Assembly: GCA_964512315.1 (NCBI GenBank)
Contig: CAZEIK010000003.1
Location: 22,548 to 86,547, forward strand
Reading direction: 5' to 3'
Source: an uncultured Candidatus Saccharibacteria bacterium
GTDB lineage: Bacteria > Patescibacteriota > Minisyncoccia > Phycocordibacterales > UBA5272
DNA: 64,000 nucleotides
The number at the start of each line of letters is the position of its first letter. The stretch's first letter is position 1. This document shows positions 5,257-64,000 of the stretch, one piece after another. Both the position numbers and the translations under genes were made by a program. Under the pieces are notes generated by a model that had not been told where the DNA came from, did no database searches, and saw only the letters and a program-made list of their open reading frames with translations.

Positions 5257-5688
5257 ATGTCATTTGTTTTTGACCCTAGGATTAACCCCACTGCACCACT
5301 GGACCCAAATGACCCAGCACCAACTCACTGGGTCGATATCGAAACCTCAGACTATCGTGCCGCTCTGTTTGGTTTCGCTAGTGAAACCTTCGAAGGGTGT
5401 TCCAGGTGGGAGGTGCGTGAGTTGCGCCGTTGGCGTGCACTAAACCCTAAAACGCTCGAAGGCTTCACTACTAACACACTCTGGGAATCGATACCTGGAA
5501 TGGGTGGTAGCCTGAATAATCTAGAGTTGGTTGATGTCCAACAAGAACCTTTCTATGATGAAGACGGTGCATCTTTGCGCCTGATGCTGTATTTCGTGAC
5601 AAGCGAGTACGGTAAGCTGATCAAGATTCCTGCATTTGGCTTCAGGACGAAGTATCGCGAAAAAGAAAAACCGGATATTGTGTCTTAG
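5257..5688 (+). CDS. Orphan 143-aa protein in the same foreign cassette.
   Basis: Ribosome-binding site AAGGAG-N7-ATG, about 50% GC. Its stop overlaps the sufB stop in convergent orientation. Confidence 0.5.
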   Translation: MSFVFDPRINPTAPLDPNDPAPTHWVDIETSDYRAALFGFASETFEGCSRWEVRELRRWRALNPKTLEGFTTNTLWESIPGMGGSLNNLELVDVQQEPFYDEDGASLRLMLYFVTSEYGKLIKIPAFGFRTKYREKEKPDIVS

Positions 5689-7007
5689 CTCATCTCTAGC
5701 TCGACGAGTCTATTGAACTCGACGGCGTATTCTAGGGGAAGTGCACGGATGATGTCTCCGACGAATCCGCCCACTATGATGCGATAAGCGTTATCCTTGC
5801 TGAATCCGTGCCCCATGAGGTAGTGCAGCTCCTCATCACCTATCTTGCCGACAGTCGCCTCATGTGTGACGTCGGCATTTTTATTTTGTATTTTATTCAT
5901 CGGCCAAGTATTAGATACTGACTTATTATCAAGAATTAGTGCGTCACAACCAACAAATGACTTGGTATTCTCGGCTGACTTACCAACTTGAACAAAGCCG
6001 CGATAATTAGACACCCCACCATCCTTGGACACACTTTTGCTTCTTATTATTGATCTCGTATTTTTACCCAGATGTATTACTTTACTTCCTGTATCTTGAT
6101 CTTGATTCTCTCCTGCGAATACTATACCCATAGACTCACTACGACTGTAGTCGCCAAGTAGTACTGATGTTGGATATAACATAGTCACAGCAGACCCCAT
6201 GTTACCGTTCACCCAATTGATCTCACCATTTTTATAGACCAAAGCCTTCTTGGTGTTGAGGTTATAAGTGTTCTTGCTCCAATTCTCAACGCTGATGTAT
6301 TTTGCTTTTGCATTTTCCATTACTATAACTTCAACGCATCCAGCGTGTAGGCTACTAGCTGTGTATTTTGGTGCACTGCAACCTTCTATGTATTCAACAG
6401 TTGCGCCATTTTCTACAATTATCAAAGTGTGTTCAAATTGTCCTGCACTAGGAGCATTCATGCGAAAGTAGGCTTGTAACGGCATTGTAACTTTTACACC
6501 CTCTGGAACATATATAAAAGTCCCACCACTCCATACAGCGCCATGCAATGCTGTAAAAGTGTGATCCTTGGCTGGCACACAGTCAGTCATGAAATATTTC
6601 TTAACCAGGTCAGGATACTTTTGTACAGCCACATCCATGTTCTCAAATATAACTCCTTGCTTAGCTAATGTGTCTTTGATTCTGTGATATACAACACCTG
6701 AGTCATACTGCGCACCTACACCACCCAGGTACTCCCTTTCAGCTTTTGGTATACCAAGCTTTTCAAATGTATCAGTTATCTCTTGGGGCAGCTCTGCCCA
6801 ACTTTTCTTTTCGTCTACAGACGGGTCAATGTAATAGTTAATTTTGTCTAATTCTAATTTAGATAGATCCGGCCCCCAAGTGGGAATTTTGGAAGACTCA
6901 AAAATAGCAAGAGCCTCTAATCTCTTTTGTAGCATCCACTCAGGCTCATTTTTTGAAGTGCTGATTTTCCTTACTAGCTCCTCAGTGATAATTCCTTTTA
7001 AAGGCAT
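5685..7007 (-). CDS. sufB: Fe-S cluster assembly protein SufB.
   Basis: 440 aa with high similarity to SufB along its full length. The 3' about 200 nt are unusually GC-rich (about 55%). Confidence 0.9.
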   Translation of the reverse strand: MPLKGIITEELVRKISTSKNEPEWMLQKRLEALAIFESSKIPTWGPDLSKLELDKINYYIDPSVDEKKSWAELPQEITDTFEKLGIPKAEREYLGGVGAQYDSGVVYHRIKDTLAKQGVIFENMDVAVQKYPDLVKKYFMTDCVPAKDHTFTALHGAVWSGGTFIYVPEGVKVTMPLQAYFRMNAPSAGQFEHTLIIVENGATVEYIEGCSAPKYTASSLHAGCVEVIVMENAKAKYISVENWSKNTYNLNTKKALVYKNGEINWVNGNMGSAVTMLYPTSVLLGDYSRSESMGIVFAGENQDQDTGSKVIHLGKNTRSIIRSKSVSKDGGVSNYRGFVQVGKSAENTKSFVGCDALILDNKSVSNTWPMNKIQNKNADVTHEATVGKIGDEELHYLMGHGFSKDNAYRIIVGGFVGDIIRALPLEYAVEFNRLVELEMS

Positions 7008-62097: not shown

Positions 62098-62233
62098 ATT
62101 TAGATTGTAGCATTAAAAATTGCTAATATAACTAGTTTAAATATTTGACACCTATAAAAGTAAGTTGTATAGTGATATTTAAATTTTGAGTTCGCTCAAA
62201 ACAGATCTTTCAACCACCCGAGGAGATACGTTA

Positions 62234-62956
62234 ATGTCACAAGTATTTCAAGCTACGAGTCCGACGCACAACACCAACCCAAAAGACCTGCTAAATGCAG
62301 AGATCGGGGAAACTTTCAAGATTGCCTTAAGGAAAAAAGAAGGTAATCGCAACTATTCGGGTTACATCATGCTCGAAGTCATACTCGTGGACGGTAGTCC
62401 TGCCGTAAAGGTTACCGACTCCACTTTCGAGCCAATTCAACTTCAAGACTACCATCGGCTACATTTATGGATAAGCCACCTGAAATTTAAAAAGTTCCAT
62501 CACGCAAGAGGCCAAAAAGGTCAGCTACTCTCTGAACTTTTCAATGCCCTACTTTGGGCCACATCGAGCGACTACATACCTCCACAAACTCCCAAAAACA
62601 GGGAACCACATCTCAGGCTCGTGGTTCCTCAACCGAGACCAGCTGCTATACAGCTGGGAGAAGAGAAGGTTGTACCAATTACTGAAGACTTCGTCTTTGG
62701 GAAACTCAAGCCCAATCAATTCATCCTTGGTAGTGGCAAAGTCGCAGGCCGCAACTACGTTCTCTTGCGGAAGCATAATGATGGCTACGGGGTCATGATG
62801 ACACTCGTCAGAACAGACATCGAATGTCTTGCCGGACTTATCAACACAAAAGACGGCGAGGTCAGCATGTCCGACATACGCAACAACAAAGGCCAATTTG
62901 GTGGCTGGCTTTATGACATGCTCCCGCTTATTGGCAAATTCAAATGGAGAACATAA
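62234..62956 (+). CDS. Orphan about 240-aa protein in a compositionally foreign cassette.
   Basis: Ribosome-binding site GAGGAG before the internal ATG 62234. About 50% GC. Strong terminator. Abuts the tRNA-Leu 3' end. Confidence 0.5.
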   Translation: MSQVFQATSPTHNTNPKDLLNAEIGETFKIALRKKEGNRNYSGYIMLEVILVDGSPAVKVTDSTFEPIQLQDYHRLHLWISHLKFKKFHHARGQKGQLLSELFNALLWATSSDYIPPQTPKNREPHLRLVVPQPRPAAIQLGEEKVVPITEDFVFGKLKPNQFILGSGKVAGRNYVLLRKHNDGYGVMMTLVRTDIECLAGLINTKDGEVSMSDIRNNKGQFGGWLYDMLPLIGKFKWRT

Positions 62957-62975: not shown

Positions 62976-63007
62976 CAAAAAGCCGCTCTCGCGGCTTTTT
63001 TTATTTT
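62976..63007 (+). terminator. Intrinsic terminator.
   Basis: aaaaagccgc-tctc-gcggcttttttt. Confidence 0.8.
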
Positions 63008-63008
63008 G

Positions 63009-63090
63009 TGCCCAGGAAAGGACTTGAACCTTCATGCCTCGCGGCACTTGCTCCTAAGGCAAGCGTGTCTACCAATTTCACCACCTGGGC
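63009..63090 (-). tRNA. tRNA-Leu(UAG).
   Basis: Long variable arm. Anticodon loop CTTAGGA. GCCCAGGTGGTGAAATTGGTAGACAC... Confidence 0.8.
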
Positions 63091-63128
63091 AGGTGTGTAA
63101 TGTAAACATTCTAACATAAAAACAAAAA

Positions 63129-63147
63129 ACTTCTAGTGCCCCCAGTA
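63129..63147 (-). repeat. 19-nt copy of the tRNA-Lys 3' end (T-loop / acceptor 3' strand). att-site-like direct repeat.
   Basis: gtgcccccagtaggattcg is identical to 63264-63282. Confidence 0.7.
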
Positions 63148-63265
63148 GGATTCGGTCACAAAACATATTCCGCTAACGCTTCATTGTTTCGCGACCCCGT
63201 ATTCGGATCCTAACAAAAAGATATTTCGATATCTTTTTTCTGTGTTCACAATTTTTACAAAATTG

Positions 63266-63338
63266 TGCCCCCAGTAGGATTCGAACCTACGACCGTCTCC
63301 TTAAGAGGGAGCTGCTCTACCAACTGAGCTATGAAGGC
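63266..63338 (-). tRNA. tRNA-Lys(CUU).
   Basis: GCCTTCATAGCTCAGTTGGTAGAGC..., anticodon loop CTCTTAA, T-loop TTCGAATCC. Confidence 0.8.
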
Positions 63339-63414
63339 AATTAAAAAATATATTAACACACAAAATACTTTTTGAAAATACGCAAAACAAAAGGCCGGAT
63401 TTTTAGTCCGGCCC

Positions 63415-63861
63415 TCACGTCGACATCTCACTCTCTTTGCACAACTCCAGTAACTTAATTGCCGGGCGAATACTGATGTAAAGCACACCCTCTTTTGGTT
63501 GATGGCAAAGACAATGGTGGGTTAACTCGAGGAACTTCTCTGCCACGAGTCCCAGAACCGCTTGAGTGAAGAATTTGCGAAAGTTAGGATCCGATGACCC
63601 CTCGTAATGCTGCGAGAAAACTTCGAACAGATTCTGGGAGCAAATGTACCTACCATGAAAGTCGACTTCTACAAATAAGCGAATCAAGCAAGCCTGTATC
63701 TCTTGTACCTCACTAGCTCGATGATCGTCATAAGCCCGGACCTCTTCCTTTAGCTTGTCATGTAGATCAGTAACCGCCCAATTCAAGAAAAGCAGAAAGA
63801 GGAGACAGGGTGTAGTAGTCTCTAGATCAAAAAACTCTAGCACCTCTAAGACCTCCAGCAT
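63415..63861 (-). CDS. Orphan about 149-aa protein in a GC-rich region that extends past the window end.
   Basis: Ribosome-binding site AAGGGAGG-N6-ATG (63861). Terminator hairpin ggccggatttttagtccggcc at 63393-63413. Confidence 0.45.
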   Translation of the reverse strand: MLEVLEVLEFFDLETTTPCLLFLLFLNWAVTDLHDKLKEEVRAYDDHRASEVQEIQACLIRLFVEVDFHGRYICSQNLFEVFSQHYEGSSDPNFRKFFTQAVLGLVAEKFLELTHHCLCHQPKEGVLYISIRPAIKLLELCKESEMST

Positions 63862-64000
63862 AATCTGGCCTCCCTTCAAGAAAAAATAGTTGAACTAATG
63901 GCGCTCAACAACGAGCCCACCGCTTTCTCAAGCTCGAGAATGAGGCCGATAATTGGATATGCGGCCTCGATACGCAGACACACCAGAACCGTGGCGCACA

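Follow-up and report, generated by a model that had tools for sequence, protein, structure and literature searches.

A small structured module ending in a copy of the adjoining tRNA's 3' end recurs downstream of tRNA genes in one clade of Patescibacteria

The stretch of DNA analyzed here (64,000 nucleotides [nt] from contig CAZEIK010000003.1 of an uncultured Candidatus Saccharibacteria bacterium, hereafter the window) carries near its right end the genes for tRNA-Leu(UAG) and tRNA-Lys(CUU), both on the minus strand. Directly downstream of tRNA-Lys lies a 129-nt insert bounded by a repeat of the tRNA's own 3' end. We find that this insert is a member of a conserved family of small structured non-coding modules. 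Within one clade of ultra-small Patescibacteria these modules immediately follow various tRNA genes and share their strand. The family is apparently undescribed. A sequence-only reading of the window had taken the repeat for a classic attachment (att) scar of an integrase-borne element. The repeat does bound an inserted segment, as shown by a relative without the 129 nt, but the att scar is unsupported.

The repeat, GTGCCCCCAGTAGGATTCG, is direct and exact (19/19 nt). Its proximal copy, at 63265-63283, belongs to tRNA-Lys itself, and its distal copy lies at 63136-63154 rather than at 63129-63147, a position given earlier that is 7 nt too low. Likewise the copies are separated by 110 nt, not by 118 bp, and are 129 nt apart from start to start. 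Even with up to 3 mismatches GTGCCCCCAGTAGGATTCG occurs only twice in the 64 kb, and a chance origin is ruled out, as 0 of 100 shuffles gave a match. In tRNA numbering the repeat extends from C56, in the T-loop, to C74, one base beyond the discriminator; CCA is not encoded. The decisive comparison comes from L110 (related loci are cited here by such numbers), a sister genome that is syntenic from ATP synthase to ParB and 89% identical in YchF. There, tRNA-Lys and tRNA-Leu(UAG) are oriented as in the window and stand 49 nt apart. Pairwise alignment with the window leaves one clean gap of 129 nt: tRNA-Lys is matched through U55, after which the alignment resumes 'CGAATCCTACTGGGGGCAC|TAGAA(G/T)TTTTT...ATGTTAGAATG'. 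Because it resumes there, past the gap, the flank that follows the distal copy is the native flank of tRNA-Lys. Comparison of the tRNA locus in related genomes, as had been proposed, thus gave an empty site without exactly these 129 nt. The 19-nt repeat bounds a clean insertion/deletion polymorphism, made up of 110 nt and a second copy of tRNA-Lys 56-74.

The same kind of insert is found behind other tRNAs. A metagenome contig, L086, overlaps window positions 63288-64000 with 0 mismatches and adds ~9.9 kb beyond the window end. Just past that end (~64133-64257, window-equivalent), the sequence behind tRNA-Leu(UAA) includes CGAGTCCCGCCCCGAGCAC, a 19/20-nt copy of this tRNA's 3' end; the tRNA-Leu(UAA) and tRNA-Lys inserts of this genome share a block of ~50 nt. 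A stem-pattern scan of metagenomes gave copies behind tRNA-Val (L098) and behind tRNA-Asp and tRNA-Trp (L100); 10 of its 12 matches were unrelated hairpins, 3 of these following tRNA-Glu and matching partly through the acceptor stem. Protein-guided retrieval of relatives yielded copies at tRNA-Leu(UAG) in L101/L102, at tRNA-Trp in L104-L108 and at tRNA-Leu(UAA) in L109. The nine distinct copies score 51-96 bits in covariance-model searches and represent six tRNA species: Lys, Leu-UAA (three copies), Leu-UAG, Val, Asp and Trp (two). All nine are downstream of the tRNA and on its strand. The modules are non-coding, 90-155 nt in size, and occur as single units with no tandem repetition; in L100 (Trp) the AU-rich hairpin H described below is repeated after the unit. 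In L110 (9726-9789) the module behind tRNA-Leu(UAA) has decayed, with its P2 hairpin shortened and its tRNA-tail copy cut to '...GAGCAC', and shows an A-U to G-C compensatory change in P2. Beyond these, the covariance models R1 and R2, which score 88-93 bits at the P2 region of the window, detected no further copies in ~775 kb of Patescibacteria sequence. The module is absent from 40 other Patescibacteria loci (~620 kb) scanned with R1 or R2, and tRNA-Cys, Leu(CAA), Thr and Gln have none. None of 80 loci from GTDB genomes examined for synteny around YchF relatives has this tRNA pair, which is informative for taxonomy only. A literature search found no relevant described tRNA-linked element in Patescibacteria.

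Read in the tRNA sense, the module has a fixed order (the window copy is laid out in Table 1). A short trailer is followed by one or two AU-rich hairpins; by P1', a stretch of 6-9 nt that is the reverse complement of positions 59-64 (T-stem 3' strand) in the module's own tRNA; by the junction J1, (NN)GAAUACGG; by P2, a hairpin of 12 bp whose sequence is fixed and includes two invariant G.U pairs; and finally by the copy of tRNA 56-74. The motif GAAUACGG is invariant in 7/9 copies, the exceptions being L109, in which the C is missing, and the decayed L110 copy, in which it has diverged. The P2 loop is ~17-19 nt long and variable across copies. An AU-rich hairpin is present in every copy, with a sequence that differs between copies. 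In the window this hairpin (H) is a perfect palindrome between the repeat copies, AAAAAGATAT-TTCG-ATATCTTTTT, just as the sequence-only reading had it. With a 10-bp stem and a U-run it contains only 1 G-C pair, and a terminator scan that needs at least 3 G-C pairs gives no call. The exact copy of the tRNA tail measures 19 nt for Lys, 20 for Leu-UAA in the window genome, 20 in L109, 19 for Leu-UAG (L102), 20 for Val and 18 for Trp (L108). In all six it starts at tRNA position 56 or 57 and ends at 74 or 75; in the L100 copies only the T-arm part of the tail remains. The ends of the window insert, AAUUUUGU... and ...UGUGAC, are not inverted repeats, and the ends of the 19-nt duplication are fixed in tRNA coordinates. 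In some copies the minimum free energy (MFE) fold also joins the acceptor 3' strand to a stretch that lies upstream of the hairpin. We do not rely on the tRNA-like three-way junction that these folds suggest, the duplex test of it being weak.

In the nine-copy alignment 96% of cells are paired and 5 pairs are changed on both sides; the covariation score was reached by 0 of 500 shuffles, and slid registers pair at 36-47%. Within the P1 helix 91% of cells are paired and 4/6 pairs are changed on both sides. Its innermost pair tracks tRNA position 59 (A59-U, G59-C, U59-A), with UA in 4 copies, CG in 4 and AU in 1. Read on the opposite strand, the two invariant G.U pairs of P2 are A.C mismatches; folding gives an MFE of -38.9 (z -4.0) in the tRNA sense versus -26.5 (z -2.9) in antisense. 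The helix built from tRNA sequence covaries with the tRNA, and the structure is strand-specific, belonging to the tRNA sense. Moreover, orthologous copies are identical at 23/23 positions of the P2 stems and 7-8/8 of J1, while their trailers and downstream flanks are 51-66% identical and their P2 loops 52-74%; in the L100/L108 pair the tRNA-Trp gene itself is 85% identical. The old copies of L100, at Asp and Trp, have a decayed acceptor part and have retained P1 through changes on both strands. Since the stems stay identical while the flanks diverge, and P1 is kept by two-sided changes, we conclude that the core and the P1 pairing are under strong purifying selection. This pattern is unlike that of a dead remnant.

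The modules also differ in occupancy among close relatives. The window, L101/L102 and L110 are about equally related (89-90% in YchF). Among them the module at tRNA-Lys is present in the window only, and that at tRNA-Leu(UAG) in L101/L102 only, the site being empty in the window and L110. At tRNA-Leu(UAA) the module is found in the window genome, L109 and L110 and is absent from L102; the alignment of the L102 flank with the window genome begins at the first base past the distal copy. The tRNA keeps its native trailer 'aaaaacgt(t)' in L109 and L110, and the module unit starts 8-9 nt beyond the tRNA. The unit of trailer, hairpin, P1', J1, P2 and copy behaves as one block, and L102 looks like its exact absence.

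Genes that might move such a block were sought with Pfam in the window open reading frames (ORFs) of at least 150 aa and in L086, 74 kb in all, and no integrase, recombinase, transposase or reverse transcriptase was found. This includes ~10 kb of L086 past position 64000, where an integrase had been thought worth looking for. BLASTN of phage and plasmid records gave no match to the module, and an exact 18-mer search of IMG/VR gave 0 matches. No Rfam family matches the locus at E<=10, and none passes the gathering threshold over 107 kb. Inspection by eye fitted no hammerhead, K-turn or group II domain V motif.

Table 1. Features of the tRNA-Lys module and its surroundings, in window coordinates unless a locus is named
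Feature	Position	Strand	Basis or remark
Trailer 'AAUUUUGUAAAAAUUGUGAACACAGA', start of insert	63239-63264	-	Gap edge in the L110 alignment
GUGAACACAG, partly complementary to acceptor 3' strand of distal copy	63240-63249	-	Inverted repeat and MFE folds
AU-rich hairpin H, 10-bp stem, 4-nt loop, A-run before, U-run after	63215-63238	-	Inverted-repeat scan
P1 5' strand (P1'), UAGGAU, reverse complement of tRNA-Lys 59-64	63207-63212	-	Pair counts
J1 junction, CCGAAUACGG	63197-63206	-	Alignments of copies
P2 hairpin, GGUCGCGAAACA / UGUUUUGUGAC+C56, 12 bp, two invariant G.U pairs	63154-63196	-	
P2 variable loop, 19 nt	63166-63184	-	
Distal exact copy of tRNA-Lys C56-C74, end of insert	63136-63154	-	
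P1 3' strand	63146-63151	-	Inside distal copy
tRNA-Lys(CUU)	63265-63338	-	ARAGORN; Rfam tRNA model, 67.8 bits
Promoter-like site upstream of tRNA-Lys, TTCAAA-18-TATATT	63347-63376	-	Consensus match only
Native tRNA-Lys/tRNA-Leu spacer	63091-63135	-	Conserved in L110 and L102
Extended -10-like TGTTAGAAT, putative tRNA-Leu(UAG) promoter	within 63091-63135; -10 at 63108-63113	-	
tRNA-Leu(UAG)	63008-63090	-	ARAGORN and Rfam tRNA model
ORF240 cassette (ORF of 240 aa)	promoter-like site 62145-62173; ORF 62234-62956; terminator 62977-63000	+	
ORF148, ATG start, GGGAGG ribosome-binding site	63415-63861	-	
ORF148 terminator	63390-63416	-	
ORF61, extends past window end	63876-64061		Pairs with ORF148
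ORF148 counterparts, between tRNA-Leu(UAA) and tRNA-Lys	L102 873-1310; L109 289-735; L110 9226-9645		

Our preferred reading, to which we give a probability of roughly 45%, is that the module is a structured RNA, linked to a tRNA, which imitates that tRNA's 3' end and is excised as a small RNA. The module would be read through from the tRNA promoter, and its RNA would fold on the tRNA-sense strand into a mimic of the T-arm and the acceptor 3' strand. The machinery that processes tRNA 3' ends may release the module as a discrete small RNA, because its terminal sequence is exactly that of the tRNA's own 3' maturation site. The functional part would be GAAUACGG with the P2 hairpin, probably bound by a protein. 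New copies would arise rarely, when a core becomes paired with the tail of a new tRNA, and would be lost by deletion.

Several points weigh against this reading. We infer the read-through, the processing and the stability of the RNA from sequence, and the AU-rich hairpin with its U-run, directly upstream of the core, could terminate transcription before the core is reached. P2 is conserved in sequence and not by covariation, a pattern no less compatible with a DNA or protein recognition site than with an RNA. The closing acceptor-like stem is weak in the duplex/shuffle test, in which 179/1000 shuffles did as well as the window copy and 34-275/1000 as well as the individual copies. Presence/absence differences among genomes with ~90% YchF identity look like mobility. 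There is no sequence homology to rtT RNA, the Escherichia coli counterpart considered below: R2 scores <11 bits on the E. coli locus, and RF00391 has no match at E<=10 here. Finally, a function as RNA leaves the direct (56-74) and inverted (59-64) tRNA copies in each module unexplained.

If the mobility is taken at face value, the module could be a non-autonomous mobile DNA element, a 'mini integrative element' that inserts at the T-loop/3' end of tRNA genes and regenerates the tail, with its recombinase encoded elsewhere. P1/P2 would then be the recombination site, possibly as folded single-stranded DNA like integron attC or CTX-phage attP. Such an element is favored by three tRNA sites that are cleanly filled in one sister genome and empty in another, by the direct repeat spanning T-loop to tRNA end, as in T-loop-class att sites, and by the T-stem inverted repeat adjoining it. 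Further support comes from the presence of at least 2 copies with near-identical cores in 74 kb of one genome, the unit 8-9 nt downstream of the tRNA in L109/L110 together with its seemingly exact removal in L102, and the one-strand, G.T-tolerant hairpins typical of single-stranded-DNA recombination sites. However, the window and the adjoining 10 kb have no recombinase, transposase or reverse transcriptase, the viral and plasmid collections gave no match, and terminal inverted repeats are absent. Between the inverted T-stem copy and the presumed crossover there is a core of 50 nt, an arrangement that differs from the core site of a tyrosine recombinase. Simple site-specific recombination does not yield copies each tailored to a different tRNA, and stems that are 100% identical between orthologs while flanks diverge are unusual for inert selfish copies. 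On balance we consider this element rather unlikely. Retro-insertion would account for the tailoring naturally, through template switching: a reverse transcriptase would copy the core RNA and switch to, or be primed on, a 3' fragment (56-74) of a nearby or abundant tRNA precursor, and the hybrid complementary DNA would recombine beside the tRNA gene. Neurospora mitochondrial retroplasmids integrate at tRNA genes by such retro-insertion. In five tRNAs the ends of the copied segment are fixed in tRNA coordinates (55/56 and 74) and not in DNA sequence, and the copy, like a precursor, is without CCA. This route is nonetheless speculative and in our view improbable, since the 74 kb hold no reverse transcriptase, the inverted 59-64 copy requires an extra snap-back step, and neither poly-A nor any other hallmark is present.

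Two simpler origins fare much worse. That the repeats are attL and attR of an integrase-borne island or prophage at tRNA-Lys, decayed to 110 nt, would agree with the 19-nt direct repeat of the tRNA 3' end, the empty site in a relative and the strain-specific cassettes at neighboring tRNA 3' ends. Indeed, the related L104 carries a prophage-like island of at least 10 kb (L104 1-9860, also L105) at the position where L100 has tRNA-Trp. The island encodes a terminase large-subunit fragment, ParB-N6/N4 methyltransferases and a metallophosphoesterase, and its junction '...ccgca|' falls immediately before the hairpin and module; tRNA-Trp was not found in the 10 kb of L104 retrieved. However, because this island sits between the tRNA-Trp position and the module, and because L100 and L108 have the module without the island, the module is not an att arm of it; the same placement implies that the module predates the island. 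Random decay would not leave the same 50-nt core and boundaries behind several tRNAs in several genomes, and what lies between the repeats is this conserved core rather than site-specific foreign cargo. The recurring core, the missing integrase, of which there is not even a remnant, and the purifying selection on the core largely refute the scar, which we regard as very improbable. We give as little credence to a degenerate second tRNA-Lys gene, or a decaying local tandem duplication of the tRNA 3' part. The distal copy with the P1 5' strand does resemble a T-arm with the acceptor 3' strand, and the P1'/J1 stretch of the Lys and Trp copies (UAGGAUCCGAAU, GAGGAUUCGAAU) resembles a T-stem 5' strand and T-loop. 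Yet the tRNA model RF00005 has no match at E<=10 in 63091-63264, and ARAGORN calls no tRNA there; D-arm, anticodon arm and acceptor 5' strand are missing; the same non-tRNA core stands behind unrelated tRNAs; and P1' fits the complement of 59-64, tracking N59, better than a direct copy of 50-55. The degenerate gene that the sequence-only reading had allowed for is rejected by these results, although the copy is nonetheless part of a T-arm-like helix.

The central point is that no model accounts for how each module comes to carry the tail of its own tRNA twice, once directly and once inverted. The models are not mutually exclusive as to origin versus present function. One might conceive of a new class of self-retargeting tRNA-linked element, in which a conserved ~50-nt core is joined by a templated mechanism, so far without precedent in bacteria, to a direct 56-74 and an inverted 59-64 copy of the adjoining tRNA to give a bespoke T-arm/acceptor mimic. 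Candidate mechanisms would be a switch of template on tRNA precursors or recombination of a folded single strand at the T-arm. In the reduced genomes of Patescibacteria the mimics could serve individual tRNAs as decoys or as partners in processing or regulation, and the long-unexplained rtT repeats of E. coli would have arisen by the same route. We think it unlikely that this scheme is right as it stands.

The tRNA cluster is a real rearrangement hotspot, because ORF240 and ORF148 are strain-variable. The repeated integration and excision once proposed for the tRNA pair is unsupported; what stands is that ORF240 is absent from the tRNA-Leu(UAG)/photolyase interval in L101/L102 and L110, that tRNA-Lys is inverted in L101/L102, and that ORF148 is hypervariable. 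The ORF240 cassette had been described as abutting tRNA-Leu(UAG). It has its own promoter-like site, ribosome-binding site and terminator and ends 8 nt from the tRNA-Leu 3' end. The 3' end of tRNA-Leu(UAG) occurs only once in the window, so the cassette has no flanking repeat of the att kind. By its composition ORF240 is an outlier (G+C 0.466, in the top 1.6% of windows), and it is an orphan, with no match in Pfam, PHROG or PADLOC and one close cluster only among 1.8 billion representatives; its AlphaFold model is unusable (pLDDT, the model's confidence score, 39). The cassette is strain-specific and not part of the module. A raised G+C to the right of tRNA-Lys was also noted correctly (0.459 in ORF148 and 0.511 in 63862-64000, versus 0.383 in the window). 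This 'GC-rich region' consists of ORF148 and ORF61, which are syntenic and hypervariable, at 19-31% identity where YchF has ~90%.

Other observations concern the same cluster and its relatives. Variability, with 41-80% identity, extends to an outer membrane protein-like product encoded next to ORF148/ORF61 (L086 8805-9503). A 12-nt perfect inverted match to TCGGATCCTAAC, in the P1'/J1 stretch of the module (63203-63214), lies at 63583-63594 inside ORF148, probably by chance (~0.1 expected in 2 kb, a rough estimate). The segment of tRNA-Lys and its promoter region is inverted in L102 (1432-1505) and L101 (1816-1889) relative to the window and L110, and one breakpoint falls exactly after C74, the boundary of the module's tRNA copy. 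L104 (10818-11345) and L100 (3100-3386) have a ZIP transporter that is 99% identical, yet the two strains differ behind tRNA-Asp: L100 has the module there and L104 an AT-rich ORF of 121 aa, and the tRNA-Asp discriminator is C in L104 versus A in L100. Independent metagenome assemblies break in or beside tRNA/module loci (the end of L086 at 63288, the end of L001 at 63866, and the starts of L106 and L107), which fits strain heterogeneity or cross-species tRNA identity. Upstream of folB, at ~3040-3130 of L100 and ~1300-1400 of L108, there is a leader-like stretch (…ggatactcc…gttgaaa…), conserved although these genomes have diverged, that may be a cis-regulatory RNA.

Apart from this cluster the window is an ordinary Patescibacteria chromosome, Paceibacteria/Parcubacteria-like, with 38% G+C and nearly all genes on the minus strand. 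Its content is housekeeping: SufB/D, aminoacyl-tRNA synthetases, DnaK/DnaJ/GrpE, RpoA, ATP synthase, YchF, a DsbA-like protein and photolyase. The closest matches of YchF among GTDB genomes are Parcubacteria/Paceibacterota metagenome-assembled genomes, at <=66% identity, and several independent metagenome assemblies hold sequence identical to the window. The TGTTAGAAT-type motif also occurs upstream of tRNA-Leu(UAG) in L102 and L110 and is probably its promoter; the promoter-like region upstream of tRNA-Lys is likewise conserved in L110 and L102. ARAGORN called a tRNA-Pyl(CUA) at 6823-6900, inside sufB (5685-7007, minus strand); it is negative at the Rfam gathering threshold and is probably a false positive.

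Should the module be a functional RNA, it would define a conserved Patescibacteria non-coding RNA family in which each member mimics the 3' end of a specific tRNA; to our knowledge very few RNA families are known in this phylum. It would offer a handle on tRNA 3'-end maturation where tRNA genes encode no CCA, and would point to a protein partner that recognizes the absolutely conserved hairpin. Should it be mobile, it would be an element that targets tRNA genes, restores the tail of the tRNA and adapts itself to each target, and we know of no described bacterial transposition or integration mechanism that explains this. On either reading the module is connected with the E. coli tyrT/rtT repeats, which are unexplained, and comparative genomics could then test how those repeats arose. 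In practice, the modules cause assembly breaks and produce false 'att sites', which software that searches for islands would mistake for scars of integration.

Among known systems, the attL/attR sites of tRNA islands share with the module a tRNA-identical direct repeat from T-loop to 3' end, an intact tRNA and empty sites in relatives; a T-loop class of tyrosine-integrase sites at tRNAs is said to have been recognized by Williams in 2002. The module differs in having 110 non-coding nt only and no integrase, in a core that recurs at different tRNAs with different identity 'cores', and in that it may sit 8-9 nt beyond the tRNA (L109). Miniature transposable elements with inverted repeats (MITEs), the repetitive extragenic palindromes and mosaic elements REP/BIME, Correia elements and palindromic elements of the RPE type are, like the module, small, non-coding, hairpin-forming, intergenic, multi-copy and strain-polymorphic. 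In contrast to these, the module has no terminal inverted repeats and no short, fixed-length target duplication, and it is tRNA-linked, strand-specific and built in part from the adjacent tRNA. Plant mitochondrial t-elements and mascRNA-type 3' ends are generic cloverleaf mimics that serve as tRNA-like processing signals. They resemble the module as partial tRNA mimics in a longer transcript, recognizable by tRNA-processing enzymes, whereas the module copies the actual 3' tail of the neighboring tRNA and has a large conserved insertion in place of the T-loop. In fish, Dada DNA transposons insert specifically into tRNA or small-RNA genes and encode a transposase (PMC8869645). Being eukaryotic and transposase-encoding, they offer a conceptual parallel only, the mechanism not being shown to be comparable.

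The tyrT/tyrV distal region of E. coli (NC_000913.3, 1286200-1288000; L111) consists of 178-bp units with one annotated small RNA, RttR. The end of each unit is AATCCTTCCCCCACCACCA, which equals the final 19 nt of tRNA-Tyr, and each unit also contains the inverted complement GGGGAAGGAT, closing a helix around a structured interior; the inverted pair is GGGGAAGGAU / AUCCUUCCCC. rtT (RF00391) and the module each follow a tRNA immediately and share its strand. In both, the unit ends with a ~19-nt exact copy of the tRNA's 3' end that begins in the T-loop (18-20 nt in 6 module copies), and an internal inverted complement of this tail makes a T-arm/acceptor-like helix around a structured interior. 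After the inverted complement the E. coli unit reads GGAUGAGAAG and the Patescibacteria modules GGACGAGAAU, which may be coincidence. The E. coli copy includes CCA (58-76), whereas that of Patescibacteria is 56-74 without CCA. Moreover, E. coli has 3.14 tandem units behind one tRNA species, with the small ORF tpr, whereas Patescibacteria have single units with a shared core behind at least 6 tRNAs, each tailored to its own tRNA and polymorphic between sister genomes. Bosl and Kersten (1991; cited in PMC3318445) reportedly found that tRNA-processing enzymes free rtT, a stable RNA, from the tyrT transcript. By analogy of design, the E. coli tyrT-distal 178-bp repeat is the closest counterpart of the Patescibacteria module.

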